From Gaiellales bacterium (GTDB lineage Bacteria; Actinomycetota; Thermoleophilia; Gaiellales; Gaiellaceae): a stretch of DNA of 64,000 nt. Position numbers and translations under genes: made by a program. The DNA lies in assembly GCA_038237865.1 (NCBI GenBank), contig JBBRYG010000005.1, positions 113,384 to 177,383 of the forward strand, read 5' to 3'. Each line of letters begins with the position of its first letter. Position 1 is the stretch's first letter. Under the pieces are notes generated by a model. That model searched no databases. It was given only the letters and a program-made list of their open reading frames with translations, and was not told where the DNA came from. Shown piece after piece: positions 27,501-47,748 of this stretch.

Positions 27501-28005
27501 AGGTCGAGTCCTTGCCGAACACCTGGACGAGCCGGTCGAGGTCGCGGGCGGCGTCGGCGGGGCGGCTCTCCTCGAGCGCCTTGGAGACGCGGCCCGAGAG
27601 ACAGCCGGAGAGAGCGACCAGGCCCTTCGCGTGCGTCTCGAGCAGCTCCCAGTCGACGCGAGGCTTGTAGTAGTAGCCCTCGAGGTAGCCCGCGGAGGAG
27701 AGCTTGATCAGGTTCGCGTAACCCTCGTTCGTCTCGGCGAGGAGCGTCAGGTGCGCGTAGCCCTTCGTCTGCGCCCGCCGGTCGTCGGCGACGTAGACCT
27801 CGCAGCCGATCAGCGGCTTGACGCCCTGCTTGCCGGCCTGCTTGTAGAGCTCGACCGCGCCGGCGAGCGACCCGTGGTCGGTGAGCGCGACCGCCGGCAT
27901 CTCGAACTCGGCCGCGCGGGCGGCGAGCGCGGGAACGCGGCAGGCCCCGTCGAGAATCGAGAACTCGGAGTGGACGTGGAGGTGGACGAACTGCGCTTCA
28001 GCCAT
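24550..28005 (-). CDS. dnaE: DNA polymerase III alpha subunit
   Basis: 1151 aa from the ATG at 28005. PHP motif 'FVHLHVHSEFSILDG'. The polymerase core, OB fold and C-terminal regions are collinear with DnaE. The track ORF start at 28152 is rejected. Confidence 0.97.
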   Translation of the reverse strand: MAEAQFVHLHVHSEFSILDGACRVPALAARAAEFEMPAVALTDHGSLAGAVELYKQAGKQGVKPLIGCEVYVADDRRAQTKGYAHLTLLAETNEGYANLIKLSSAGYLEGYYYKPRVDWELLETHAKGLVALSGCLSGRVSKALEESRPADAARDLDRLVQVFGKDSTYVEMQNAGLEQQQRINPLLAKLAEGTGLPLVATGDVHYLRHEDARAHEALLCIQSGDSLKNPNHWKFDTDQFFFKSAQEMALDFPGHDAALRRTLEVAERCNVTMELGRILLPQFPTPEGRDSFDYLVELCEKGLEKRYGHSTPELQDRLRFELKTIKEMGFADYFLIVWDFIRFAKQNGVSVGPGRGSSAGSLAAYCLNITDVDPIRYGLLFERFLNPARKDLPDMDIDFSVAGRDRVINYVAEKYGRDRVAQIITFGTMAARAAVRDAGRVLDIPYGTVDKIAKLIPEGPGQSLDACLKPGQPLKGEYDADATAREIVDLARPLEGLVRQDSIHAAGVVIGAQPLTEVVPLQQKGADQEVVTQFGMWDVVELGLLKIDFLGLRNLDVIDKTVELAGGGAGRSSWQSPDDLGAAPPGRRLDIDKIPLDDKKTYEMLARAESIGVFQFESSGMRDALRQVKPTEFDDLVALVALYRPGPMAYIPVYARRKNGQEPVTYIDERLKAITGSTYGTCIYQEQYMQIAKELAGFSPAEAETLRKAIGKKIHELMASLKDKFLEGCAANGVPPGVAQQLWKDMEQSQDYSFNKAHAACYALIAYRTAWLKANHPREYMAALISSVMNTKDRVPFYVNACDEMGIEVLPPDVNESQLDFAVVEGKIRFGLSAVKNVGEPAAKAIIRAREEGERFTSIWDFTERVDPQCANKRALESLVKCGALDSAGDSRLGMLECLEQALAWGQRQQADRLAGQGSIFDLGDSEAAETKPRHHPSVPVRDADKNELLRMEKETLGVYVSEHPLHAIRDQLRRKTDATLAELERRRDGETVTVGGIVSAVKQLTTKKGEPMVFLRLDDVTGGAECVVFNSTYASARELCVTDRILIVKGRIDHKQEGETKLIALEVSGFEAVAERRDVTLKIDARIARAGVIRDLAALVREFPGDSRLHLVLHMAEGDKQLVLGPKFKVQPAADFFAEAKALLGEAAVL

Positions 28006-28055
28006 CGGCGGAGGCACAGTGTAGAACCCGCTCCGGAGGTCTCTCTTCCGGCGCC

Positions 28056-28475
28056 TCAGCCGAGCAGCTCGGCGTGCGCCGCCTGCCCTGCGAGGCGGCG
28101 GTCTGAGGTGACGAGGACCGCTCCCGTCGCTTCGGCGAGCACGAGATAGCACGAGTCGTAGACGCTCAGTCCGCGACCAATCGCCGTCAAGAGGGCCGCT
28201 TCGATCAGCGACTCCGCCGGATGGGTGACGAGGGGGAGCGCCCGCAGGCGGCGGAAACCGTCGTTCGCCGAACGGCCCGTAAGGTTGCCCCGCCTCGCGT
28301 ACCGCGCGAGTACGTGGGCCGTCTCGACCCAGACCAGGTCGGGTGCCAGGGCGTGGATTTCACCGTCTCCAATCCGACGGAGCCAGCCACCCGCCTGGTG
28401 GTCCGGATCGAGCAGCCCGTTGAGGAGAACGTTCGCGTCGAGGACTGCCGCGTCAGGGGCCGTGATCCCGGTCAT
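28056..28475 (-). CDS. vapC: PIN-domain toxin (VapC-like)
   Basis: 139 aa. 'AVLDANVLL', 'VYDSCYLVLAE' and 'LVTSDRRL' carry the PIN acidic residues. Confidence 0.85.
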   Translation of the reverse strand: MTGITAPDAAVLDANVLLNGLLDPDHQAGGWLRRIGDGEIHALAPDLVWVETAHVLARYARRGNLTGRSANDGFRRLRALPLVTHPAESLIEAALLTAIGRGLSVYDSCYLVLAEATGAVLVTSDRRLAGQAAHAELLG

Positions 28476-31361: not shown

Positions 31362-32083
31362 ATGCACCTCTTGTTTCTCGATGAAAGCGGCCAGATCGAC
31401 AAGGGCGGCCTCTTCGCCCTCGGGGGGATCGCCGTGCGAGACAGCGACTGGCCCGAGCTTCGCCGCGCGTGGCAGGAGACGCTCGCGTCGGCCGGCTGGC
31501 CACTCGACCGTGAGATCAAGTGGCACGGCATTCGCAAAGGCGAGGTGCCGCCGTCACTTGCCGACAGCGTCTTCGCCATGCTCTCCGGCGCTCCGGCCAC
31601 CGCATACGTGACCTTGCTCGACCTCGAGCTCGGCCCGGAGCGAGAACCCGCCTTCTTCCGCAGCCCCGAAGAGATCTATGCAACCGGCGTGATGTTCCTC
31701 GCCGAGCGCTTCCATCATCTGCTCGACGCGGAGGACGATCTCGGCCTGATCGTCGTCGACAGCCGCTTCCGCGAGGACGATCAGCGCTTGCGCCGCTTCT
31801 TCGCCGACCTGACGAAGGACGGCACGCCGTATATGCAGCTCCCACGGATCGTCGAGGGCCTCTTCCTGGGCCCAAGCCCTATTCGATCGGCCTGCAGTGT
31901 GCGGATCTGATCGTGGCGATGACGGCGAACGCGGAGCGTGGCGGTGGACAGGGTCGCGGGTATCTCAAGAAGGTGCTGCCGCGATTTGCGACTCATCCGG
32001 CGACGGGCGAGCTCGAGGGAGTCGGGATCAAGCGGTTCCCGGAGCTGGTGCCGCGTGAGCACGGCCGGCACCGACTCTTCTGA
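31362..32083 (+). pseudogene. DUF3800-family gene with one frameshift
   Basis: The N-terminus 'MHLLFLDESG' lies in ORF 31362..31910. The conserved C-terminal 'SIGLQCADLIVAMTA' lies in the frame of ORF 31520..32083. The frame switch is near 31865-31880. Confidence 0.65.
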
Positions 32084-32107: not shown

Positions 32108-32428
32108 ATGCTCGCAGCCGAGCTTCTCCGTGAAGTACGCCGGCGCCACGGTTTGACGCAGCGACAGCTCGCCGCGCGCGCCCGCACGAGCCAGGCTGCG
32201 ATCTCCCGGATCGAGCGCGGGCTCGTCTCCCCCACGGTCGACACGCTCGCGACGTTGCTCGACCTGATGGGCGAGCAGCTCGTCGTCACCGGCGAGCAGA
32301 TCGACTACGGGCACGATCGGACGCTCTTCGCCGAGACGCGGGCGCGCACGGTCGACCAGCGGATCGCGCATGGTGTGGCGTTCTCGAATTTCGCGCGGGA
32401 GCTCCGTGGCGCAGCCGCCCGACGCTGA
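32108..32428 (+). CDS. XRE-family HTH protein (putative antitoxin/regulator)
   Basis: 'GLTQRQLAARARTSQAAISRIERG' is a canonical HTH_XRE motif. Confidence 0.8.
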   Translation: MLAAELLREVRRRHGLTQRQLAARARTSQAAISRIERGLVSPTVDTLATLLDLMGEQLVVTGEQIDYGHDRTLFAETRARTVDQRIAHGVAFSNFARELRGAAARR

Positions 32429-32918
32429 ATTCGACCCCGGGCCGCTCCTCGATGTCCTGGCCACCCATGGCGTCGAGTTCGTCCTCGTAGGCGGACTGGC
32501 GGGAATCGCGCACGGGTCTGCGTACAACACGCTCGACCTCGACATCGTCTACAGCCGGGAGCCGGAGAATCTCGAGCATCTCGCAGCTGCGCTTCGGGAC
32601 GTCGAAGCGACCCTCCGCGGCGCGCCTTCCGGCCTCCCTTTCCAACTCGACGCCAAGACACTCCGGCAAGGCATGAACTTCACGTTCTCGACTCCGTACG
32701 GATCGTTCGACATCCTCGGCGATGCTGCCGGAGCACCTTCGTTCCACGAGCTATGGGCCGCGGGAGAGGAGGTGGAGATCCGGGGGCGCGCCGTTCGTAT
32801 CGCGTCGCTCGACCACCTGATCGCGATGAAGGAAGCTGCGGGCCGCACGAAGGACAAGCTGCACGCGACCGAGTACCGCATGCTCTCGGACGAGCTGCGC
32901 GCGCCCCGCGACGAGTGA
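32406..32918 (+). CDS. minimal nucleotidyltransferase-fold protein
   Basis: 'FVLVGGLAGIAHGSAYNTLDLDIVY' fits the G[GS]...DxD signature. The C-terminus is 'LDHLIAMKEAAGRTKDKL'. The start is uncertain: GTG at 32406, or 32370 as in the track. It overlaps the XRE gene. Confidence 0.7.
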   Translation: MAQPPDAEFDPGPLLDVLATHGVEFVLVGGLAGIAHGSAYNTLDLDIVYSREPENLEHLAAALRDVEATLRGAPSGLPFQLDAKTLRQGMNFTFSTPYGSFDILGDAAGAPSFHELWAAGEEVEIRGRAVRIASLDHLIAMKEAAGRTKDKLHATEYRMLSDELRAPRDE

Positions 32919-32920
32919 TC

Positions 32921-33106
32921 ATGGAGACCTCTGGGGGAGACGAGCAGTTGCGCGCGGCCGCACGGCAGATGGAGGAGCTGCTCCGCGAGCGGCTCGAGCT
33001 GACCGACCCGATGCACCCGGACAACCCGGAGTACGCGGGAAGCCCGCGCGGCATGCTGTGGTGGCAGGCCGCGTCCTGGATCGTCAATCAGGTCGAGGAG
33101 GAGTGA
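32921..33106 (+). CDS. small hypothetical protein
   Basis: 61 aa from an ATG 3 nt after the NTase stop, acidic and helical. Its 3' end overlaps the convergent helicase gene by 19 nt. Confidence 0.35.
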   Translation: METSGGDEQLRAAARQMEELLRERLELTDPMHPDNPEYAGSPRGMLWWQAASWIVNQVEEE

Positions 33107-36100
33107 GCCGCTACTGACACTGCCTCCTCAACGAACCGACACAAAGCATTGACCATCCGCATCTGCTCGATCGTGCGGCAGCGGATCTCAAGCAGCTTCG
33201 GGCTCGCGAACAGCACGGCCAGCGACTGCGCGCGCGAGATCGCCACGTTCAGCCGGTTGCGTGAGAACAGGAACTCCACGTTCCGCGGTAGGTCCTCCCC
33301 GCTCGAGGTTGCCATCGAGAAGAAGACGACCGGCGCCTCCTGGCCCTGGAACTTGTCCACCGTGCCGATCCGGGCGCGTCGGCCGAGCCGCTTGCGCAGG
33401 CACCTGACCTGCGCGTTGTACGGCGTTACGACGAGCACGTCCTCGTAGCCGATCCGCCGCTCGAGGCCGTCGCAGTCGGTGAACGTGCCGCCGATCAGCT
33501 GCTCGAGCTCCGCTGCGATCCGGTCTGCCTCCTCGATCGACGAGGCGCGGTTCGCCTCGTGCTCGACCGCGAGCCAGCGCAGCCCCGTCCCCACGAGGCC
33601 CGGCGTGTCGATCCGTTGCAGCTCGCATGCGGGCACCGCGTGGAGCCTTCCCTCGTAGGAGGTCTCCGAGATGAAGCGGCAGACCTCGGGGTGCATCCGC
33701 CAGGTGCGGGAGAGGAAGAGCCCGCGCTCGGGCGGGACGGTGTCCTCGTCGCCGAGTAGGTGCACGAGCACCGAGGCCGCCGCCCCTTCGGGATGGATGC
33801 CCTGCGAGACCTGTCCGAGCTGCTGCGGGTCACCGAGCAGGACGACGTTCCGCGCGCACGTCCCGACGGCGAGCGCGTCGGCGAGCGAGACCTGGCCCGC
33901 CTCGTCAACGAAGAGCGTGTCCACGACGTCCTCCATGTCCTCGCGCGCGAACAACCAGGCTGTCCCGGCGAGCAGAAGAACGTCGTCCTCGGGCGCCGAA
34001 AAGTGCGCCTGATTCGCAGAGGTCGTGACAAACGCGCTCTCGTAGGAGTCACCCTTCTTCAGCCCGCGGAACGAGAAGCTCTCCTCCCGGGCGGCGCGCT
34101 CGACCTCGGCGACCAGGTTGTGGATCGCCTTGTGACTCGTCGCGGTCACTCCGACCCGCCGGCCGAGCTGCATCAGGCGGACGATCAGCCGCGCGCCCGT
34201 GTATGTCTTCCCGGCTCCGGGCGGGCCCTGGATCACGAGGTGGCGCCCGCCGAGCGCGGTCACGAGCTCCTTCGCCGCCTCGAGGTCGTCCTGCACGAGC
34301 GGCGACGTGAACGGCTCGCGGGCAAGAATCGACTTGCTCGCGAGGTAGGTCTCGGCGCCGGCGAGCACCGAGCGCGCCAGCCTTCGCAGCGCCGCCTGCT
34401 GCTCCGTCGTCTTGAACGGCCCGCCGGGAATGAGCGCCGCCGGCAAGGGCGCGTCCTCGAGCTTCGGCCCGCGCCGGAGCATGAGCGTCCCGGCCTCCTC
34501 GTCGAGCGCATCGATGTTGCCCGCCGGGCCACCTGTCGCCGGGTCGAAGACCGCGTTTCCCGGGGAGAGATGATGCTGCTGCGCCGGAAACTTGAACGGC
34601 CAAACGAGCGATTGGCCTGCGCCGATTGGCGGCCCGTCCTGCTCGAGCCCTCCGATCGCGTCGGAGTCGCGCTCCTCGAGCTCCTCGCTCGTCCGCCCGA
34701 TCCGGTTGAAGAACGCCCACCAGACCGGCTTCCCCTCGCGCCGGTGGTAGAGCAGCAGCTGCGCCAGCAGCCACCGCGGCCGGTCGGCGTCGGCGACCTC
34801 GTACGAATCCTCGGGCAGCCCCGCAAGGAGCGCCGCGCGGAGCTCCTCGGTCTCCTCCACCCCCTCCGGCGGGTCGCGCGGCTCCTTCGGCTCCGGCTGC
34901 GTTGCCTCACTGGGTCGCAGCGGCAGCAGCCAGTCGCGGAGCTGCAGGGTCGAGACGCAGTCCTCCTCGTTGTAAGCGGCGATGTCGTCGAGGATCCGAG
35001 GGTCGTGCCGCTCGAGCCAGTCCTCGTAGAGCACGATCGAGTCGTCGCCAGCGCGCAGGTCGGCGTGGCGCTCGAAGTAGAAGGTCTCGACCTGCTTCAG
35101 CCCGTAGCGCTCGTGTGAGAGGCGAAGCCCCTGCGAGACGACCTTGTACAGATCGACGAAGACCTCGGCGCGGAGCAGCTCGTCGAGCTCCTCCTCGCGC
35201 GTCCCGTACTCGCAGGTCAGCCGCTTCAGCGCGGTCACCTCGTACGACGCGTAGTGGTAGACGTGCAGCGCGGGATCGGCGGCACGGCCCTCCCGGATCA
35301 GGTCGATCACGCCCTCGACCGCGCGCCGCTCCTGCGCGCGGTCGTGCGCCCAGAACGGGCGGAACGCGCCGGCGCTGTCGACGATCCCACAGAGGTACTC
35401 GAGCCCGCGGCCGGGCTCCCAGAACGGGTCGCCCTCGATGTCGAAGAAGAGATCGCCGTCGCTCGGCGGCGGCAGCAGCTCGAACCCGCGCGCCGGCTCG
35501 GACGGGAGCACCTTCCAGGCGTGCCCGTTCGCCCGCGCCGCGACCTGCATCGCCGCCTGGTCGCGCAGTGTCTCGAACGTGCGCGGCGCCATCGTCTGCG
35601 GGCGCGCAGCGTCAGGCGCCTGCGCGAACTGCGCGACGGTCGCGATCCCCTCGCGCTTGAGCCGGAGGATCTGGTCGCGCCGCATCCGCGCGACGAGGCT
35701 GAGGTGATCGTCCGCGCGCCAGCGGCTCTCGCAGCGCTGCTGGAAGTCGCAGCGGTCGCAGAAGGAGACCGGCAGGGGGTAGACGTCGATCCCGGCCTCG
35801 ACCGCGCTGACGAACCGCTCGCGCACGCGGTGGTAGTAGGCGAGGAAGTCGGCGACGCGGAGGCTCTCGCGCTCGTGCGTGCCGAGCACGACGTGCATCC
35901 GCTCGGGCATGGAGCCCTGGATCCGCCCGACCTGCTCGGAGTAGAAGCAGAGCTGAAGCACGTAGGCGGGCTTCGAGTGGCGCGCGAGCTTCGTGTCGAC
36001 GACCTCGTAGCGCCCGCCCGGCTGGCGCTCGACGAAGTCGGCGAACCCGCGCCAGTCGCCGTCGACGAAGCAGGCCTGGTAGACGACGTCCGCGCCGGCG

Positions 36101-36375
36101 AGCATCGCCTCCTCGGTCGCGCGGGCGGCCTCGTCGAGGTCCCAGTCGTTCGGGATCGTGGTGACGTCGCGGCCGTCGGCGAGCAGTTGGGCGAGGTACG
36201 CGGCTTCGTGTTCCTCGCCCTTGCGTTTGACGAGATCGGCCTGCGGGTTCTCGTCGGTCGGCCTCGCCAGCTCGTGCCGCGCCACCGCAAGCTCGAGCTG
36301 GGTCAGGTGCTCGCACTCGAGGAACGCGTTCAGGTCCGAGGGCGAGAAGAGGATGGATCCGTTGCGCTCCTGCAC
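33088..36375 (-). CDS. RecB/Cas4-like nuclease fused to SF1 (DNA2/Upf1-like) helicase, Nhi-like architecture
   Basis: 1095 aa. The N-terminal PD-(D/E)xK nuclease is 'VDTKLARHSKPAYVLQLCFY', with Cys cluster 'C..CDFQQRC'. Helicase motifs are Walker A 'IQGPPGAGKTY', 'LFVDEAGQV', 'VVTPYNAQV' and 'TVDKFQGQEAPVV'. Confidence 0.9.
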   Translation of the reverse strand: MQERNGSILFSPSDLNAFLECEHLTQLELAVARHELARPTDENPQADLVKRKGEEHEAAYLAQLLADGRDVTTIPNDWDLDEAARATEEAMLAGADVVYQACFVDGDWRGFADFVERQPGGRYEVVDTKLARHSKPAYVLQLCFYSEQVGRIQGSMPERMHVVLGTHERESLRVADFLAYYHRVRERFVSAVEAGIDVYPLPVSFCDRCDFQQRCESRWRADDHLSLVARMRRDQILRLKREGIATVAQFAQAPDAARPQTMAPRTFETLRDQAAMQVAARANGHAWKVLPSEPARGFELLPPPSDGDLFFDIEGDPFWEPGRGLEYLCGIVDSAGAFRPFWAHDRAQERRAVEGVIDLIREGRAADPALHVYHYASYEVTALKRLTCEYGTREEELDELLRAEVFVDLYKVVSQGLRLSHERYGLKQVETFYFERHADLRAGDDSIVLYEDWLERHDPRILDDIAAYNEEDCVSTLQLRDWLLPLRPSEATQPEPKEPRDPPEGVEETEELRAALLAGLPEDSYEVADADRPRWLLAQLLLYHRREGKPVWWAFFNRIGRTSEELEERDSDAIGGLEQDGPPIGAGQSLVWPFKFPAQQHHLSPGNAVFDPATGGPAGNIDALDEEAGTLMLRRGPKLEDAPLPAALIPGGPFKTTEQQAALRRLARSVLAGAETYLASKSILAREPFTSPLVQDDLEAAKELVTALGGRHLVIQGPPGAGKTYTGARLIVRLMQLGRRVGVTATSHKAIHNLVAEVERAAREESFSFRGLKKGDSYESAFVTTSANQAHFSAPEDDVLLLAGTAWLFAREDMEDVVDTLFVDEAGQVSLADALAVGTCARNVVLLGDPQQLGQVSQGIHPEGAAASVLVHLLGDEDTVPPERGLFLSRTWRMHPEVCRFISETSYEGRLHAVPACELQRIDTPGLVGTGLRWLAVEHEANRASSIEEADRIAAELEQLIGGTFTDCDGLERRIGYEDVLVVTPYNAQVRCLRKRLGRRARIGTVDKFQGQEAPVVFFSMATSSGEDLPRNVEFLFSRNRLNVAISRAQSLAVLFASPKLLEIRCRTIEQMRMVNALCRFVEEAVSVAAHSSST

Positions 36376-36872: not shown

Positions 36873-38078
36873 GTGGCCCGAAAAAGATCCCAACCTGCCG
36901 CAGCGCGGCAACTGATCTGTGATCGGTGCGGGATTTTGAATCCCACCGGTGCGCCCGAATGTTCTGCGTGCGGCAGCGAGCGCTTCGCGCCCCAATGGGT
37001 CTTGCACCAGCGACGCATCAACCGCCAGTTCGCCGTTCAGGTAACGGAACCAAACCGAGCGTTCGACAACAGCGGCACTGCACGTCTCACGCTCAGCAAA
37101 TGGTGGCCGGGCGGGCGCGCGACCTTTCACATTCCATCGGCGGACCAGTGGGAACAGATCAAAGGGATCGTCGATCGCGATTTGGCGCAGTACCTTCACT
37201 GGCAGACGCAGCAGGCTGTTCAGCAGACGATCGCCCAAGGTCAAAAGGACGCCCGAAAGGCAACCGCGGGCCTTCAGGCCACGGCGAAAGCCAACCCCAC
37301 GCTCATCACGGAAATCTTGCGCGGGATTAAGTTCGACAAGATCACGGAAGACGACGTCCCGCAGATCGGACGGGCAATTGGCGACATCGCGGGCGTTCTG
37401 ATCGATGCCGACGACAGCATGCGGCGGGCGATCCAGCGAATCGTTAAACAGTTACCTGCGCAAGGTTCCGAAGCCGTTTCGGCGCTTTCTGACTTGATGG
37501 AGAGCGTCACGCTTGCGCAGATCAATGCCGTGACGAATGAAGTGCGGCGCCGCGTCAATTTGCTCAAGGTCTTCAAGGAGCGGGTCAACGACGAGCGTAC
37601 GTACGAGATCACCGGCGATGGTTCGATCCACCGGCTGCTGGAGAGCGCGATGTGGATCGTCAATGAGCGCTACTGGCTCATGCACAGCAACGCGACTTTA
37701 CGAACCGTCGTCGGGAAGGAGCTCGCGAAGAGACACGACGATTTCAAGAAGAAGCGACCCGACTTCGTCTGCGGGTCAGTAGATCGTCGGCTAATCGTCA
37801 TCGAGATCAAGCGACCCTCGCGCGTGCTCCAGGTCGAAGATCTCGACCAGCTGGAGGAATACATTGTCACCGCGCGCGAGTACCTCGACGAGCCTCGAGC
37901 TCCGTTCGAGGCAATTCTCGTTGGAAAAAGGGCAACCGACGACCTCCGGAAGCGGCTCGACGTGCGCGGAAGCCGCGCCTTCCAGGTTAAGACGTACGCA
38001 AGCCTCATCGACGACACCGAGCATCGGTACGAGAGCTATCTCAAGGCGCTCGAAGAGACGGACGAAGACGCCGCCTGA
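36873..38078 (+). CDS. Zn-ribbon + DUF4263-type PD-(D/E)xK nuclease (Shedu SduA-like)
   Basis: 401 aa. The N-terminus has 'CDRCG...CSACG'. The C-terminus has 'RPDFVCGSVDRRLIVIEIKRP', with D then E-x-K 14 residues later. The local sequence is visibly more A/T-rich. Confidence 0.7.
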   Translation: MARKRSQPAAARQLICDRCGILNPTGAPECSACGSERFAPQWVLHQRRINRQFAVQVTEPNRAFDNSGTARLTLSKWWPGGRATFHIPSADQWEQIKGIVDRDLAQYLHWQTQQAVQQTIAQGQKDARKATAGLQATAKANPTLITEILRGIKFDKITEDDVPQIGRAIGDIAGVLIDADDSMRRAIQRIVKQLPAQGSEAVSALSDLMESVTLAQINAVTNEVRRRVNLLKVFKERVNDERTYEITGDGSIHRLLESAMWIVNERYWLMHSNATLRTVVGKELAKRHDDFKKKRPDFVCGSVDRRLIVIEIKRPSRVLQVEDLDQLEEYIVTAREYLDEPRAPFEAILVGKRATDDLRKRLDVRGSRAFQVKTYASLIDDTEHRYESYLKALEETDEDAA

Positions 38079-38097: not shown

Positions 38098-38586
38098 TCA
38101 CCTAGATCCCCCTTCTCCAGTCGGGAGTACCTCGACGAGCTCTGCGACGACGCGCACTTCGTCCGCATCGGCAACCGTGATGTCGATCGGTTCGAACCCG
38201 GCTGCATCGGTATCCGGTAGTAGCCGGACAGCATCGGGTGCGCTCCGTTCGTACAGCTTCACCGTGTAGCTCCCTCCGGTTTCCGGATCATCGATGTGCC
38301 GGCTCTCGACGAGGACTACCCGCCCGGTACGAGAACCCTCCACCGGCGTTCGCCAGACACAGAACGCCCCGTTTTGGATCCGCCGGTTCATCGATTCCCC
38401 CACCACTTGCCCGACGAACAGGCCGGGCGCGGGAGAGACTCGGCCATTCGGCAAGACCCACGCCTCCGCCTCGACCGCCTGACCGTCTCCAAACCCGCCG
38501 GCGGCGGCCGCGAGCGAGTACAGCGGAATCGCGTTCTCGTATGGCCTCACCTCGGCATCGGCTATGCGGGTAAAGGGCAATACGAC
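38098..38586 (-). other. LexA/UmuD-type S24 peptidase domain fused to HsdR
   Basis: '[12 protein letters not shown]' is the cleavage-site region, '[18 protein letters not shown]' holds the Ser, and 'GRVVLVE...YTVKLYE' holds the Lys. The tail '[17 protein letters not shown]' parallels LexA 'VELLPENSEFKPIVV'. Confidence 0.7.
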
Positions 38587-41500
38587 AGCCTCTTCTACCT
38601 CCGCCCACTCGAGGCCGAGCAGCTCGGCCTGCTCGAGCACCGTGATCGTGGCCTGCTCCTGGAGATCGGGCGGATAGCCGTGCTTGCGCAGGATCCGCCG
38701 CACCATCCGGCGGAGGTTCGCACGCACGCTGTCCTTCACCGTCCAGTCGATCGTCGCGTTCCGCTTCACCGTCTCGACGAGCTCGCGGGCCATGAAGAGC
38801 AGCTCCTGATCGCCAAGTAGGTCAACGGCGCTCTGGTTCGCTGCAAGCGCGTCGTAGAACGCGAGCTCGTCGTCGTTGAGCCCGAGCTCCTCGCCGCGCC
38901 GGTCTGCCTCGCGCAGCTCCTTCGCGAGCGCGATCAGCTCCTCGATTACCTGCGCCGCCTCGATCGCCTTCGCCTGGTAGCGCCGCACCGCAGCCGCGAG
39001 CAGCTCCGCGAACGACCGCGCCTGGACGACGTTCTTTCTCGAGCGCACCTTGATCTCGTCGTTCAGCAGCTTCTGCAGGAGCTCGACGGCAAGATTTCGC
39101 TGGGGCAGCTCCCGCACCTCGGCGAGGAACTCGTCCGAGAGCAGCGAGATGTCCGGCTTCTGCAGACCCGCAGCGGAGAAGACGTCTATCACCTCGCCCG
39201 GCGCGATCGCTCCGGCGACGATCTGCCGGATCGCGTGGTCGAGATCCTCCTCCGGCCGCGATTGGCCCGCCTCCGTCTTCACGAGCGCCGCTTTCACCGC
39301 CTGGAAGAACGCGACCTCGTCGCGGATCGCGAGGGCCTCGTCCCGCGGCACCGACAGCGCGAACGCCTTCGAGAGCTCGATCACTGCCCGCACGAACCGC
39401 TCACGCCCGTCCTCCTGCGCGAGCACGTGCTCCTGCGCGCTCGCGAGCAGCGCGAGCAGACCGCCGGGAGTCAAGGCCCGCGAGTAGTCGAAGCCGTGGA
39501 AGAGCGCGCGGCAGATCTCCGCCTTCCCGAGCATCAGCGCGACCGCCTCGCTCTGATCGAGGGCGCCCGCGCCGCGACCGCCGCTTGCCGTGTAGATCGA
39601 CAGCGCTTTCCGGAGATCGTCCGCGATGCCTAGGTAGTCGACGACGAGGCCGCCCGGCTTGTCGCGGAAGACGCGGTTCACGCGCGCGATCGCCTGCATC
39701 AGCCCATGCCCACGCATCGGCTTGTCGACGTACATCGTGTGCAGGCTCGGCGCGTCGAAGCCTGTCAGCCACATGTCGCGCACGAGCACGACCCGGAAGG
39801 GATCGTCGGGATCCTTGAACCGCCGCGCCAGCTCCTCGCGGCCGCGCTTGCTGCGAATGTGCCGCTGCCACTCCGGCGGGTCGGACGCCGAGCCGGTCAT
39901 GACGACGTTCACGTCCCAGTCGGGCCGCAGCGTGACGATCGCCTCGTAGAGGTCGACACAGATCCGGCGGCTCATGCAGACGACCATCGCCTTCCCGTCC
40001 ATCGTCTCGAGGCGGCGCTCGAAGTGCTCGACGAGATCCTCCGCGACGAGCTCCAGCCGCTTCTCGGTGCCGACGACCGCCTCGAGCTGCGCCCACTTCG
40101 ACTTCAGCTTCTCGCGCCGCGCCTCCTCCTCGCCCTCGGTCACCTCCTCGAACGCCTCGTCCAGCTTCGGCGTCTCCTCGGGCTTGAGGTCGAGCTTCGC
40201 CAGCCGGCTCTCGTAGTAGATCGGCACGGTCGCGCCGTCCTCGACCGCCTGCTGGATGTCGTACACGTCGATGTAGTCGCCGAAGACGTTGCGCGTGTCG
40301 CGGTCCTCGAGCTCGACCGGCGTGCCGGTGAAGGCGACGTAAGTCGCGTTCGGCAGCGCGTCGCGCAGGTGCCGCGCGAAGCCGTCGACGAAGTCGTATT
40401 GGCTGCGGTGCGCCTCGTCCGCGATCACGACGACATTGCGCCGGTCGGTCAGCAGCGGGAAGCGGTCGCCCTTCTCCTCCGGGACGAACTTCTGGATCGT
40501 GGTGAAGACCACGCCGCCGGACGCCACGCTGAGGAGCTCGCGCATGTGCGCGCGGTCGCGCGCCTGCGTTGGCGCCTGCCGGAGCAGGTCGGCGCTGTGG
40601 CCGAAGACTCCGTAGAGCTGGTCGTCGAGGTCGTTTCGGTCGGTGAGGATGACAAGGGTGGGATTACCGAGCGCCGGCTCGAGTACGAGCTTGCCGGCGT
40701 AGAAGGTCATCGTCAGGCTCTTGCCGGAGCCCTGCGTGTGCCAGACGACACCGGCGCGCCCGTCGCCGGAGGGGTCGGCGGCGCGTACCGTCGTCTCGAC
40801 TGCCTTCAAGGTCGCATGGAACTGGTGGTAGCCCGCGACCTTCTTGACCACGTTCGCGCCGTCGTCCTCGAAGACGATGAAATGCCGGACGAGCTCGAGC
40901 AGCCGCTCCTTCGCGAAGACGCCGCGGGCAAGCACCTCGAGCAGGTTCGATCCCGGCGGCGCCAACGCCTCGCCGTCGATCGTGCGCCACGGCAGGAACC
41001 ACTCTTTCGAACCGGTCAGCGTCCCGAGCCGCGCATCCACGCCGTCCGAGACGACGAGCAAGGCGTTCGGCGCAAGCAGCGACGGGATCTCGAGCTTGTA
41101 GGTCTCGAGCTGGTTGTAGGCACTCCAGACGTCTGCGTGCTCGTCGGCCGGGTTCTTCAGCTCGACGACGGCGAGCGGGATCCCGTTGACGTAGAGGACG
41201 ACATCGGCGCGGCGGTGCGCCTGGCCTTCCTGGACGGTGAGCTGGTTGAGCGCGAGCCAGTTGTTCGCGGCGAGGTCTTCGAAGTCGAGCAGGCGGACGC
41301 GCTCGCCGCGGACGCCGCCGCCCGCCGCGGGCACCTCGACCTCGATCCCGTCCACGAGCAGCCGGTGCAGACGCCGGTTCTCGAGCACGAGCGCCGGTGA
41401 CTCGCGCTGGAGGAGCTTCCGCTCGGCCGCGTCGAGCGCGCTCCCCGGCGCACCCGGGTTCAACCGTGCGAGCGCGGCACGCAGGCGCCCGCGGAGCAGG

Positions 41501-41646
41501 ACGTCGCCGTAGCTCTCCCGCTCGACCGCCGGCTCGCCGGGCGCGAGATCGGGCCCGTGCATGACCTCCCAGCCGAGCTCGCCGAGCCACTCGAGCAGCG
41601 CGAGCTCGGCGACGTTCTCGTCGTAACGGGGGACGGTGGTCGGCAT
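38098..41646 (-). CDS. hsdR: type I restriction endonuclease subunit R with C-terminal S24 (LexA-like) domain
   Basis: 1182 aa from the ATG at 41646. The nuclease is '[20 protein letters not shown]'. Helicase motifs are '[11 protein letters not shown]', '[10 protein letters not shown]', 'FTGTP' and 'QAIARVNR'. A DUF3387-like region follows, then the S24 module. Confidence 0.93.
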
Positions 41647-41648
41647 CG

Positions 41649-42635
41649 TTAGGCGACTCGGGCCAGGACTGCCTCCACATTCTCGATGAATGTCGGCCAA
41701 TAGTCAGCACCCGTTCCGTCGTCTCGGACGGACACCCCCGCATGTCGTACATCGGCTGCGATGCGATGTATGAGCTGACGGGCCTCACTCGCGCGCTGGT
41801 AGTCGGAGAGCTCATCTAGATCGGGACGTGCAAACCAGCGCCAGATCTCCGCCAACGCGTGGAGCAGTTGCGGCCAGTCGCGGTGTGTGGGGATCGCGTG
41901 GGGATCGAGTTCGAGGAAGGAGGCCCAGCGCGCGCTGTCGACCCCGTATCGAGCCTCGTTGCCGACCCAGAAGCGCTCGACATCGCCGGCGGCGCTCAGC
42001 TCCGCGAGGGCGTCGCTGACGTTCCGTTTCGTCGACGCTGCGGCGGCGGCGATCGCAAGAGCGGTCGCGTTCGACACCCCCGTCGTGAGTAGGAAGCGGA
42101 CGATCTCCGCGCGCGCGCTCACGCCGAAATGCCGCCGCAGCCGGAACGCGAGGTTGATCGGGGCCCGGAGGTCGGGCGGGGTCGACTTTCCGCTCGGCGT
42201 CGTCGCAGGCTTCACGAAGCCGCGGGCGAGGAAGATCGGGTCCTCACGGCCGGGCAGGCCCGGCCGGCGAAAGAGCGGAACGGGCTCGCGGCCCGGCTCC
42301 ACCGTGCCCGGCAGGCGTCTGAGCGCCGACCCGTTCGCCGCGGCCCACTCGACCGCGGCGTCGATGACCGGACGTCCGGGATCGTGGCGCGAGAGGTGCG
42401 ACAGCCGGCGCGAGCTGACGACGTCGCCGTTCGCTCGCAGCCAGTCGAGCACCTCGTCGAAGAGGCGCGGGTCGGCGCGGGCGACCTCGAGCGAGAACAA
42501 GAGCAGCGCCTCCGGGTCCTGCGCCCACGGGTCCCTGCGCGCGGTCGCGATGAAGACACCCATCTGCGACCATTGGTCGCCGGCGAACCGCAACAGCGTG
42601 CCCGTGACGCGCTCTCTAAGCTCCGAGACCCGCAT
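41649..42635 (-). CDS. hypothetical protein with central wHTH-like segment
   Basis: 328 aa from the ATG at 42635. '[48 protein letters not shown]' looks like a winged helix. It ends 2 nt before the hsdR start. Confidence 0.6.
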
Positions 42636-43200
42636 CCTCGACTCCGAGGTAGCGCAGCGCAGGGACCAACATCTCGTTGAATCCCTCGGACGGATCCTGC
42701 GTCCGTGCCCAGGCCGCAGCCGCGAGCAGCTCATCGCGCGTCGGCGCAAGCGCGCGAAGATCGTCCTCGTGGCGGCCGCTTCCCTGGTCGGTGAGCGCGT
42801 AGAGCTTGAAGTGGATCTGGTCGTAGCGGCTCGCGAGGTGGATCGACAGGGACGGCCCGAACTCCCTGCGCTCGAGCCGGTCGACGAAACCGTCGGGGAG
42901 CCCCCACTCGAGCAGGTCGGACGGGCCGGCGTTGAGCCAGCCGTCGCTGACCCCGAAGTCCGCGGCGACGGCGTCCTTGGCCTCGACGAGGGCAGGCGGC
43001 AGCGGCTTGGCGTCGCGCAGCACCCCGCCCTCCATTAAGGCCACGACGTCGACGTCGCGCGTCGGCCGCTCGACAAGTCCGAGAATCGTGAGCGCGGAGC
43101 CACCGATGACGACGAGCTCGACCGGCGTCCGCGCGAGCTCGAGCCGCTGCCCCAAGGCGCGCAGCAACTCGGCGATCGCCTCTGGCGCGAGCGGATACAT
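42616..43200 (-). CDS. minimal nucleotidyltransferase (DUF6036-like)
   Basis: 194 aa. 'LVVIGGSALTILGLVERPTRDVDVVAL' fits GS...DxD, and 'HFKLYALTDQGSGRHEDDLRAL' follows. It overlaps the downstream gene by 20 nt. Confidence 0.72.
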   Translation of the reverse strand: MYPLAPEAIAELLRALGQRLELARTPVELVVIGGSALTILGLVERPTRDVDVVALMEGGVLRDAKPLPPALVEAKDAVAADFGVSDGWLNAGPSDLLEWGLPDGFVDRLERREFGPSLSIHLASRYDQIHFKLYALTDQGSGRHEDDLRALAPTRDELLAAAAWARTQDPSEGFNEMLVPALRYLGVEDAGLGA

Positions 43201-43242: not shown

Positions 43243-44360
<1,118 letters not shown>

Positions 44361-44364
<4 letters not shown>

Positions 44365-45923
44365 GGACGGATGCGGAGCAGCTCTGAGCGGATCGTGCGC
44401 TCAAGTTCTACGGACTCAGCGAACTGTTCCTCGAGCTGCGCCGCCAACCTCGCGATCTTTTCCTCGAACGGCTCGCCGTCGTCCTCCTCCGCCGCGGCGC
44501 CGACGTAGCGACCCGGCGTCAGCACGTGGTCGTGCCCACGGATCTCCTCGAACGTCGCGCTCTTGCAGAAGCCGCGCTCGTCCGCGTACTCGCCGACGCC
44601 CGGCTCGCCGCGCCAGGCGTGGTAGGCGCCAACGATCCGCGCCAGCTCGTCGTTGGTCAACTCGCGGTGGGTGCGGCTGGCCATCACGCCGAGCTTGCGC
44701 GCGTCGACGAACAGCGTCTCGCCCGCCCGCGCCCGCAGCGACTTCGCGCCTCGCGTCGGCGCGCCCGACTTGTCGCGGGCGAGGAACCAGAGACAAACGG
44801 GGATCGGCGAGCCGTAGAAGAGCTGCCCCGGCAGCGCGACGATGCAGTCGACGAGGTCGGCCTCGACGATCGCCTTCCGGATCTCGCCTTCGCCGGACTG
44901 TTGGGAACTCATCGAGATGTTCGCGAGCACGAAGCCCGCGATCCCCAGCGGCGCGAGGTGGTGGATCATGTGCTGCACCCAGGCGAAGTTCGCGTTTCCC
45001 TGCGGCGGCACGCCGAACTGCCAGCGCACGTCGTCGGCGTCGCGTGCCCAGTCGCTCATGTTGAAGGGCGGGTTCGCGAGCACGAAGTCCGCCTTCAGGT
45101 CGGGGTGCAGGTCGCGGCGGAACGTATCGGCATGCTGCGGGCCGAGGTTCGCCTCGATCCCGCGCAGGGCGAGGTTCATCTTCGCGAGCTTCCAGGTGGT
45201 CGGGTTCGACTCCTGGCCGAAGATCGAGATGTCGTCGAGCCGGCCGCCGTGCGCGGCGATGAACTCCTCCGACTGCACGAACATGCCGCTCGAGCCACAG
45301 CAGGGGTCGTAGACGCGGCCCTGGTAGGGCTCGATCATCTCGACGAGCAGCTTCACGACCGAGCGGGGCGTGTAGAACTCGCCGCCGCGCTTGCCCTCCT
45401 TCGAGGCGAACTGGCCGAGGAAGTACTCGTAGACGCGGCCGAGCACGTCTTTCGCGCCGTCGCCTGCGCCGAAGCCGATGTTCCCGATCAGGTCGATCAA
45501 CTCGCCGAGCCGCTGCTTGTCGAGCGCCGGCCGCGCATACTCCTTGGGGAGCACGCCGGCGAGCGAACGGTTCTCGCGCTCGACCGCGTCCATCGCGCCG
45601 TCGACGAGCGTCCCGATCTCGGGCTGCTTCGCCTTGTCCTGCAGGAAGCCCCAGCGAGCCTCGGCGGGAACCCAGAAAACACCCTTGGCGAGGTACTCGT
45701 CGGGATCCTCGGGATCCGCACCCTGTGCAACCTGGGCGGCGATCTGCGCGTGCCGCGCCTCGAATGCGTCGGAGACGTACTTGAGGAAGATCAGGCCGAG
45801 GACGACGTGCTTGTACTCGGCTGCGTCCATGTGCCCGCGCAGCTTGTCCGCCGCCGCCCAGAGCGTCGCCTCGAAACCGAGCGTCGCGCCATTTGCCGAT
45901 TGCTGCTTGCGCGGTCTACCCAT
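44361..45923 (-). CDS. hsdM: type I restriction-modification N6-adenine DNA methyltransferase subunit
   Basis: 520 aa from the ATG at 45923. The N-terminus is '[32 protein letters not shown]'. SAM motif '[12 protein letters not shown]'-type is '[12 protein letters not shown]', and the catalytic motif is 'LANPPFN'. Confidence 0.95.
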
Positions 45924-47748
45924 CCGCGGTCGGCACAGTAGCGGGCGCCGCTTCCCACCCCGATGCTCGGCGCCAGTCCTCGAGTGAGACGTCGGGGCCT
46001 CGCCAAATCTGAACCACTCGTGCCGCCAGCTCGGCGGAGCGCTCATCGATCGCCTGCTCGGTCCAGCCGGCCGCGTAGCTCCCGACGAGACGTGAATTCA
46101 GGAGAAGGACGCTGTGCGCATTGAGGGCGTCCTTCTTTGATGTCCAGGCAGCGTTCGACATCGCCGGATTGAGCTTCGAGGTTACGAGGGTCAAGTTGCC
46201 GAGTTGGTGGACTCGCGACTCCCGCTGCTGAATCGCCTCATCCGTCGACTCGGACAAAGACCAGTGCTGCTGCCACTTCTGAGGGAGGACGTGCTCGATC
46301 GAGAGATCAGCAGGAATCTGGACAGCCTCAGCCTTCTCGGTACGGAGGTCATGTTCCAGTGCTTTCAACAGCATGACCAGCCGCTTCCGCACGAGGGTTC
46401 GGTAGAGAGGCGCATCGTGGAGGACAGACAGAAGCTCTGCGTCGTCAGGCCATCGAGCTGAGTCCGCATCGCTGGACGTGAGGAAGCCATGCACCACCTC
46501 ATCGGCGGCGTCGGTGCTCCCGGTCAGGAGCTTCACGAGATCGACGAAGAGCCGGTTGTACCCCTGCGCCGTCAGCCGACAGATCATCCGCCGTACGAGC
46601 CAACTCTCGAGCATCGAAAGCGCAGCGTTTCGGCGCGCCTCGGGAAGATCGTCCTGGAAGAGGATGAGCGCAATCGGATACGCGGTCGTTGTATCGAGAG
46701 CTTCGAGTCGCTCGAAGAAACGCTGCGGGATCGTTCCGAGCGGTTGCTGGAAGAAACGCTCGTATCGGTCGCGATCGGCAGTGAATTCCCCGATCGTCTG
46801 CGTCACCGACTGGGTCTCTTCCTGGAGCAGCCTCTTGAACGTCCCGTAAAGATGCTGCGCCGGCACCTCCTCGCCCAACTTCATTGTCAGCCAGTGCATC
46901 AAGAAGAGCTCGGCGCGCGGACGGCGGAGGCGACCCTGCACAATTTCCTCTCGCCAATAGTCCCGGTCGAAGGTCGCCCACCGCTCCGCGTAGAGGCTGT
47001 CGAGATTCGCCGAAGCCTCGGTGCGCTCGGCATGCTGAAACACCAGGTTCTTGACGAGGTCGATCGCGAGCAGTGGGGTGCCGCGGGCATTCAGACTTTC
47101 GAAGATCACCTGCGCGTCGTCCTCGGAATCGAGGTCGATCACCACGAGCTTGAACAGGTTTCGGGCTACAGCAGTGAGCCCGTCGAATGCTCGTTCGACA
47201 TCGTCCTGCTCGACCGCCCACTGGCGAATGACGCCAAGGAAGAAGGCGTATGCCTCATGGATCCGGTTCCCCTCATCCTCAGCGGCGGCTTCGCCTGCCA
47301 TGACGTCGACGAAGGCATGGCGATTCGCGTTCGTAGGCCAGACCTTGAACCGCGCATCGCGAGTCTTCGCCAGGTCGGGATTGTTTCGAGTGAGGCTCTC
47401 GAGGAGCCGAGCCTGAACCTCGCACCCCGTCTCTTGCGCCACGCGTGAGGCAGCAGCGATGAACAACTGGAGCGTCGTAAGCCGCTGCTGCCCGTCGATG
47501 ACAAGTCGGACGTCGATGTCCCCGAGCTGAGTGGGCATCTGTTCGAGTACCACCGCTCCCAGGAAGTGCGGAGAAGGCTTGCCAGACGTGGCAGGGTCAC
47601 TCGACCGGTCTAGCACCCAACAAACGTCGTTCCACAACGGCTCCCAGTGCTCGGCTTTTTTCCACACGTATGGGCGCTGATAGAGGGGAACGACGTAGCG
47701 CACGTCCTTGCCGAAGATCGTTGCGAGGTCGTTCGTGTCCGCCTTCAT
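45916..47748 (-). CDS. GmrSD-family (DUF262 + DUF1524) modification-dependent type IV restriction enzyme
   Basis: 610 aa. DUF262 shows 'YQRPYVW' and '[13 protein letters not shown]'. The C-terminal His-Me finger shows 'IEHVLPQ...LGNLTLV...N'. It overlaps hsdM by 8 nt and the ImmA gene by 4 nt. Confidence 0.9.

Follow-up and report, generated by a model that had tools for sequence, protein, structure and literature searches.

The window analyzed here is a stretch of 64,000 nucleotides from a Gaiellales bacterium (GenBank assembly GCA_038237865.1, contig JBBRYG010000005.1, positions 113,384–177,383 of the forward strand), and it encodes a complete type I restriction-modification (R-M) system (i.e., hsdM, hsdS, and hsdR). 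The restriction subunit of this system, HsdR, ends in a complete LexA/UmuD/CI-type module of peptidase family S24, in which the cleavage site, the serine, and the lysine appear in the correct order. Based on its translation, the hsdR-S24 gene (1182 amino acids [aa] plus stop) occupies positions 38098..41646 of the minus strand, with the start ATG at 41646 and the stop codon at 38098–38100, inside a listed open reading frame (ORF) at 38098..41700 (minus strand). The product is identical to the database protein P0121 (1182 aa, NCBI assembly). The genes for the specificity subunit (hsdS: 43243..44364, minus strand; Pfam Methylase_S, E-value 6.4e-22) and the methyltransferase (hsdM: 44361..46046, minus strand; Pfam N6_Mtase, E-value 1.1e-102, and HsdM_N) lie upstream of hsdR on the same strand, an arrangement that is also found in the loci L001, L004, L081, and L085. 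The methyltransferase carries no S24 module.

HsdR was compared to known families over its whole length. The matches to the NCBIfam model TIGR00348 (587 bits, cut-off 284) and the PADLOC model REase_I (1060 bits), together with the Pfam domains, show that the host protein is a bona fide type I HsdR in which the nuclease, the superfamily 2 (SF2) motor, and the C-terminal helical domains are present. These comprise, all on the minus strand, an HSDR_N endonuclease domain (PF04313: residues 10–215, positions 41002..41619, E-value 2.9e-43), a SWI2/SNF2 motor domain (PF18766: residues 274–511, positions 40114..40827, E-value 7.7e-78), a T1R_D3 domain (residues 603–671), and a T1RH-like_C helical C-terminal domain (PF11867: residues 688–1010, positions 38617..39585, E-value 7.7e-128). 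The protein is not a repressor of the LexA/CI type, since its N-terminal 1015 residues consist of these four domains and include no DNA-binding domain. The appended module covers residues ~1016–1182 (~167 residues; positions 38101..38601, minus strand), as delimited by comparison to tail-less HsdR proteins and by an alignment across host architectures, and is composed of a linker with a conserved LPF(R/T)R(L/I) motif, the cleavage-site region, and the S24 core. No model in NCBIfam or PADLOC matched this tail.

An earlier note on this DNA had proposed that the tail contains every element of the LexA C-terminal domain, and translation of positions 38098–38586 (minus strand) reproduces the tail that it quoted. 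The Peptidase_S24 core (residues 1047–1170; positions 38137..38508, minus strand) was recovered by Pfam (PF00717), AlphaFold2, and Foldseek. When searched alone, the tail matched PF00717 with 27.1 bits (E-value 3.7e-6), above the cut-off of 23.3 bits, and the same model scored 22.5 bits, just under the cut-off, in the scan of the whole protein. An AlphaFold2 model of the tail built from a 34-sequence alignment (predicted local distance difference test [pLDDT]: 88; predicted template modeling score [pTM]: 0.85) was then compared to the PDB using Foldseek. Each of the 24 best matches was LexA, UmuD, lambda CI, or a related repressor (phage 186 or lambda-186 hybrid). At the top stood 3k2z_A (E-value 6.6e-6; query-normalized TM-score 0.65), and the matches include RecA-filament complexes solved by cryo-electron microscopy (8trg, 8gms, 8gmt, and 8gmu).

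To place the motifs, the tail was aligned using MAFFT with E. coli LexA, UmuD, and lambda CI, for which the three reference sequences were entered by hand. The cleavage-site region (residues 1040–1051; positions 38494..38529, minus strand) aligns with LexA A84-G85, UmuD C24-G25, and CI A111-G112, such that AAAAGG stands opposite LexA VAAG, UmuD C-G, and CI A-G. Cleavage is predicted between Ala1049 and Gly1050 (codons 38500–38502 and 38497–38499, minus strand). Ser1085, the predicted nucleophile (38392..38394, minus strand), aligns with LexA S119 within GESM (GMSM, GDSM, and GNSM in LexA, UmuD, and CI, respectively), and Lys1130, the predicted general base (38257..38259, minus strand), aligns with LexA K156 within YTVKLY (TVKRL, TVKKL, and TFKKL). 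A fourth tail motif of 17 residues stands opposite VELLPENSEFKPIVV. Thus, all four motif correspondences to LexA that the earlier note had drawn were upheld, and the profile match and the predicted structure agree with them. Upstream of the cleavage site lies the motif LPFTRI (residues 1023–1028; positions 38563..38580, minus strand), which was located in an alignment of 81 tails.

The module and LexA have the same fold, an Ala-Gly bond ~35 residues upstream of the G-x-S-M serine, and a T-V-K lysine, and the fold and the catalytic dyad are likewise shared with UmuD and lambda CI, whose RecA-bound forms (UmuD: 8gmt; CI: 8gmu) are among the structural matches. They differ in that no sequence-only link to the solved LexA structures was found and the module has LPFRRL and VAELVEVL motifs of its own. 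Sequence-only searches of the PDB, using either the single tail or the 34-sequence profile, returned nothing significant (none at E-value 0.01), so that the evidence for S24 membership comes from the Pfam profile, the fold, and the motifs. By the criteria of profile, fold, dyad, and scissile bond, the module is assigned to peptidase family S24, self-cleavage is predicted, and its sequence divergence marks it as a distinct clade of that family.

Continuity and conservation of the fusion

The predicted catalytic residues show little variation. Without exception, 34 diverse members of the subfamily have G-x-S-M and T-x-K, and in 54 long members taken from a library clustered at 50% identity, the serine and lysine are invariant and the glycine of G-x-S-M is nearly so. 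The AAG sequence at the predicted cleavage site is present in 79 of 81 aligned tails. The LPF(R)R(L) motif upstream of the site and the VAELVEVL end at the C-terminus are constant in the module whatever the host protein. Compared to the Gaiellaceae relative L001, the ratio of nonsynonymous to synonymous substitution rates (dN/dS) is 0.07 in the module and 0.18 in the HsdR body, a rough estimate from one pair of sequences, and the module appears from these comparisons to be under strong purifying selection, in frame. In the same pair, dS is ~1.2 in the module (38101–38601) and ~0.48 in the body (38602–41646) with similar protein identity; the high module value may be a trace of recombination or module exchange.

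To survey HsdR homologs for the same fusion, the 120 closest relatives (60–100% identity) were compared, and 114 of them contain the module. Five full-length relatives with a body ~70% identical to that of the window protein are tail-less and end at the normal HsdR C-terminus (...EWA, ~residue 1015). The existence of these tail-less relatives implies that the core enzyme does not need the module, which is an add-on.

The earlier note had treated the tail as part of hsdR, and this stands: the same junction is found in one continuous ORF in more than 100 protein clusters (60–93% identity) from NCBI, JGI, ENA, and Logan assemblies, and in 21 genome loci, and its recurrence across independent assemblies excludes an assembly join. 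Base composition is unbroken at the hsdR-tail junction (window G + C ~68–70%). Short S24 proteins of 145–177 aa that appear to stand alone are present among the matches. One of them (P0001, 177 aa) was considered as a natural case of a split hsdR and a separate S24 gene and was rejected, because the syntenic locus L081 is ridden with frameshifts, and its GmrSD, hsdM, and hsdR genes are all fragmented. Such short proteins might point to an artificial fusion of two genes, hsdR and one for S24, through misassembly or a sequencing error that erased a stop codon, but this reading has a negligible probability given the repeated junction, the frameshifts in every gene of the one locus that was checked, the continuous base composition, and the in-frame selection on the tail.

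Distribution of the module in restriction and defense enzymes

To determine how widely the module is distributed, HMMER searches of 1.84 billion representative proteins were combined with a genome scan limited to one genome per species. The protein search returned 2375 matches at E-value ≤1e-3, 1609 at ≤1e-10, and 489 at ≤1e-30 (the 489 to 1609 matches are protein clusters at 50% identity), and at least 590 species-representative genome loci encode a relative of the module. Precomputed PF00717 matches exist for many of these relatives, and JGI labels fragments of them 'SOS-response transcriptional repressor LexA'. For the classification of host proteins, 80 loci were kept, and in all 80 the module is the extreme C-terminus of its ORF. 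The hosts are SLFN-g3/DUF2075 helicases of ~800 aa (48 loci), HsdR (21 loci), XRE helix-turn-helix (HTH) repressor-type proteins (three loci), type III Res (two loci), a 2012-aa DruE-like helicase (one locus), and a protein with an MZB domain (one locus); the remaining four hosts were unclassifiable, being too short or at a contig end. The 54 long matches add type ISP enzymes, fused R-M enzymes of the Eco57I and MmeI types, DUF3427/PLD helicases, and Schlafen AlbA_2 proteins, as well as LlaJI, McrBC, and MTES_1575-type nucleases, and a fusion to a staphylococcal nuclease was found in P0019. In multi-subunit systems, the module is carried by the R subunits (HsdR in 21 and Res in two of the 80 loci) and never by a stand-alone HsdM or Mod.

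Judging from these host proteins, the module is common to about ten unrelated classes of restriction and defense enzymes in many phyla and appears to be mobile. The earlier note had presented it as a peculiarity of HsdR; the HsdR fusion is real, but the module is not confined to that subunit. A neighbor-joining tree (rough, without bootstrap) places the SLFN-attached modules in one clade, and the HsdR-attached modules are mixed with the Res, DruE, MZB, and XRE versions, which suggests repeated transfer of the module between host proteins.

The XRE-HTH+S24 repressors of the subfamily (e.g., P0023–P0026, L013, L014, and L028) have S24 domains that are 50–56% identical to the module, with the same site and dyad, and they branch among the HsdR-attached modules in this rough tree but have the classical repressor architecture. 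A role of these relatives as regulators of defense islands was considered and rejected, as the one context that was examined is an ordinary chromosomal one.

A second topology was found within HsdR itself. Eight of the module-bearing HsdR relatives (P0221, P0227, P0230, P0232–P0234, P0236, and P0237; ~1200 aa) have the normal HsdR C-terminus and carry the whole module, including the cleavage site, inside the motor domain. The insertion lies at ~residues 285–470, after AGYHQFHA, between the Q-motif region and Walker A. Its counterpart in the window protein is a motor loop (residues 288–299; positions 40750–40785, minus strand) between AGYHQFHA and the GSGKS Walker A motif. One hsdR gene with the internal insertion (P0230 in L085) belongs to an intact hsdM-hsdS-(two TIR genes)-hsdR operon, which was recovered from two independent assemblies (L085 and L086, 7001–10630) and lies next to an integrase. 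Cleavage at the internal site would sever the endonuclease domain from the motor.

Gene neighborhoods differ among the host classes. In the SLFN class, a MazG-like gene of ~119 aa lies directly upstream in 38 of 43 loci (e.g., L015, 3682–4041), which looks like a two-gene cassette of a MazG-like protein and an SLFN-helicase-S24 protein. These SLFN/DUF2075 hosts show a weak NERD-like match at the N-terminus and have no methylase. A census of neighboring genes revealed no conserved partner gene next to the HsdR, Res, or DruE versions. No module match was found using tblastn in 50,697 phage records, and a plasmid collection gave one match, on the Halomonas sp. PA16-9 replicon NZ_CP040452.1 (L087, 3983–6453). 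The matching ORF (159 aa) directly follows one of 686 aa that is read in a different frame, in an unannotated region of the record, and the pair reflects either a frameshift or a gene of this type that is truly split.

Some type ISP, MmeI-like, and HsdR members contain an extra domain without a Pfam match after S24 (P0258: 1313–1490; P0280: 965–1166; P0296: 456–651; P0325: 195–392), and P0181 and P0183 have ~140 aa more after the module. In the type ISP members, these extra domains contain repeated 'RELAxxLGFxRTGxxI'-type segments resembling winged helices.

Candidate functions of the module

S24 domains self-cleave at an Ala-Gly bond when filaments of RecA on single-stranded DNA (ssDNA) stabilize the cleavable conformation, and cleaved LexA ends in ...VAA. 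The central cost that restriction and other nuclease-based defenses carry is autoimmunity. To our knowledge, the degradation of EcoKI HsdR by ClpXP is the only well-understood type I safeguard, documented for a few enterobacterial systems, and how the cell reads that its own chromosome is at risk remains indirect in it. For EcoKI alleviation, two articles (PMC11109961; PMC12707154) describe ClpXP proteolysis of HsdR after damage or recombination. Restriction alleviation induced by ultraviolet light is given as an SOS function (Thoms and Wackernagel 1984, as cited in PMC3874165), and LexA cleavage is given as exposing latent ClpX signals (Neher et al. 2003, as cited in PMC10584840).

The reading that we favor, although we put it a little short of an even chance, is that RecA-stimulated self-cleavage disables HsdR, making the module a self-contained fuse for restriction alleviation. 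In undamaged cells, the HsdR-S24 enzyme would restrict normally. RecA-ssDNA filaments that arise after DNA damage, or after the enzyme's own cutting of unmodified chromosomal sites, would bring the S24 module into its cleavable state, and Ser1085 and Lys1130 would cut the Ala1049-Gly1050 bond. The remaining HsdR(1–1049) would end in ...SLAAAA-COOH, similar to the ...VAA-COOH end of cleaved LexA and to the ClpXP-recognized ssrA tag. The restriction subunit would then be degraded or otherwise disabled, and the M2S methylase would survive and restore modification. On other restriction and defense nucleases or translocases, the module would do the same job.

This proposal borrows from known systems and departs from each of them. 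As in LexA(1–84), predicted cleavage leaves an ...AA-COOH end, but the N-terminal partner of the module is a 1015-aa nuclease-translocase, whereas that of LexA is a winged-helix DNA-binding domain. In UmuD, cleavage turns a polymerase subunit on, and in CI it inactivates a repressor; the cargo of the module is an immune-system enzyme. The proposed outcome is the same as in the ClpXP alleviation of EcoKI (types IA and IB), i.e., HsdR is lost after damage or recombination and the methylase is spared. However, the EcoKI signal is the complex translocating on unmodified chromosomal DNA, which is recognized by ClpX, with no autoproteolysis and no S24 domain, whereas the trigger in HsdR-S24 would be part of HsdR itself and would respond directly to RecA filaments. 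In CapH/CapP, too, a DNA-damage cue leads to proteolysis and to changed immune activity, but CapP is a separate metallopeptidase that cuts a transcriptional repressor and turns expression on, whereas the module is a predicted serine-lysine autoprotease fused to the effector.

Several points weigh against the alleviation fuse. Because S24 specificity itself demands the AA|G site, the AA-COOH end is not independent evidence of a degron. The module has diverged too far from solved S24 domains for sequence-only detection, and it might have a trigger other than RecA. UmuD sets an example of cleavage that activates, and some defenses are turned on by DNA-damage signals. Lastly, the commonest hosts are the methylase-less SLFN/DUF2075 helicases with a MazG-like partner, for which an 'on' switch would make sense.

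The last two points favor the opposite polarity, in which S24 keeps the enzyme auto-inhibited until RecA filaments on phage or damaged DNA cause a cleavage that releases an active nuclease-translocase, as in the conversion of UmuD to UmuD'. Such a switch would use the same intact predicted cleavage machinery; CapH/CapP, which turns CBASS (a cyclic oligonucleotide-based anti-phage signaling system) on after DNA damage, offers a second precedent, and hosts without an obvious self/non-self test could use an infection trigger. We nevertheless consider activation unlikely. A restriction enzyme that stayed inactive by default, waiting for RecA filaments, would let incoming DNA pass at entry, and the core is a normal HsdR, as the tail-less relatives show. 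The internal variant fits a removable plug poorly, because a cut there would part nuclease and motor while the S24 body remained in place beside Walker A. What both topologies would share is only the backbone break and an AA-COOH end on the nuclease-bearing fragment, which favors 'off'. Confinement of the module to R subunits points the same way, because alleviation removes R and spares M. Together, the internal insertion and the restriction to R subunits tilt the evidence toward 'off'.

A structural role without regulated cleavage, i.e., dimerization or docking on RecA filaments that would pair translocating enzymes or tether them to recombination intermediates, appears improbable. The S24 domains of LexA, CI, and UmuD dimerize and bind the RecA groove, the fold of the module matches their RecA-bound forms (8trg, 8gms, 8gmt, and 8gmu), and pairing could matter for type I, ISP, and III enzymes, which cut after long-range communication or collision. 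However, non-catalytic derivatives of enzyme folds usually lose their catalytic residues, and a purely structural role leaves unexplained the invariance of Ser, Lys, and AAG over hundreds of divergent members in many hosts.

It is quite improbable that the module answers to a cue other than RecA (e.g., a phage antirepressor, an anti-restriction protein, or another stress signal), or that it acts in trans as a protease. The divergence of this S24 clade, with no PDB sequence match at E-value 0.01, its own LPFRRL motif upstream of the site and VAELVEVL C-terminus, and the extra helical domain after the module in some members would be in keeping with a different sensor, and some S24 repressors are governed by antirepressors and not by RecA. 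Against this, every architecture keeps the substrate site in cis, directly before the protease, the nearest relatives that are not enzymes are classical XRE-HTH+S24 repressors, and the HsdR, Res, and DruE versions lack a conserved adjacent partner gene.

The alleviation fuse can be extended beyond HsdR. In a wider reading, which we hold tentatively and place appreciably under an even chance, a LexA-like autoproteolytic fuse would be a general, unrecognized regulatory layer of prokaryotic immunity that is controlled post-translationally by RecA filaments. It would cover type I, ISP, IIL (MmeI-like), III, and IV restriction enzymes, Druantia DruE, and Nhi-like helicases, and the cell would take its own nucleases apart as soon as repair of its chromosome is under way.

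Full-text literature searches returned no description of S24 fusions to restriction or defense enzymes, in agreement with the earlier note, which knew of none; most subscription journals lie outside the coverage of these searches, and an earlier mention is possible there. Targeted look-ups in two R-M reviews (2013 and 2025) found S24, peptidase, or self-cleavage mentioned in neither, and those in a Druantia structure preprint, a defense-modularity preprint, and the Millman 2022 preprint revealed no S24 fusion. These results suggest a known autoproteolytic switch on a new class of cargo and a direct link, so far undescribed, from the DNA-damage signal to the shut-off of restriction.

The identity of the domain is solid based on profile, motifs, and predicted fold, and its function is what we infer from that identity. 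If the function is correct, a RecA-responsive self-cleaving domain on the R subunit would be a one-protein solution to autoimmunity that reads the canonical DNA-damage signal directly, and S24 domains, which are otherwise known from repressors and UmuD, may also serve enzymes as post-translational switches. The spread over about ten enzyme classes and many phyla makes this look like a general strategy, and a mobile module in two insertion topologies is of more interest than a single HsdR case. The mechanism, if it holds, would have general reach, and the module could yield a portable, damage-responsive degradation tag.

Neighboring genes in the window

A GmrSD-type (type IV, modification-dependent) restriction gene (45916–47748, minus strand) lies directly upstream of hsdM with an ORF overlap of ~130 bases, and this GmrSD-hsdM arrangement recurs in L081. 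Between hsdS and hsdR are a DUF6036/AbiEii-like nucleotidyltransferase gene (42616–43200, minus strand) and a 366-aa ORF without a family match (41649–42749, minus strand) that overlaps it. The pair is kept upstream of hsdR in L005 (58% and 45% identity) and could represent an insertion of toxin-antitoxin type within the R-M operon.

On the other side of hsdR, a 401-aa ORF (36873–38078, plus strand) is convergent with it; apart from a weak zinc-ribbon match and faint ones of HSDR_N_2/SduA_C-like type, nothing assigns this ORF to a family. It is followed by the gene of a 1095-aa protein (33088–36375, minus strand) that combines PD-(D/E)XK, RNase_H_2-like, and superfamily 1 (SF1) helicase (AAA_11/AAA_12) domains and has MkoA/MkoC-like matches in PADLOC. 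In L001 and L081, too, sequence homologous to this protein lies downstream of the R-M genes, and the helicase-nuclease may be part of the same defense island. Among the matches listed, the closest genomic relative of the window is the Gaiellaceae metagenome-assembled genome of L001. The island adjoins dnaE, which encodes the DNA polymerase III alpha subunit (24550–28152, minus strand), implying a chromosomal location. Between dnaE and the helicase-nuclease gene are two small ORFs on the plus strand, a DUF3800 ORF (31362–31910) and a DUF2204 nucleotidyltransferase-like ORF (32370–32918).

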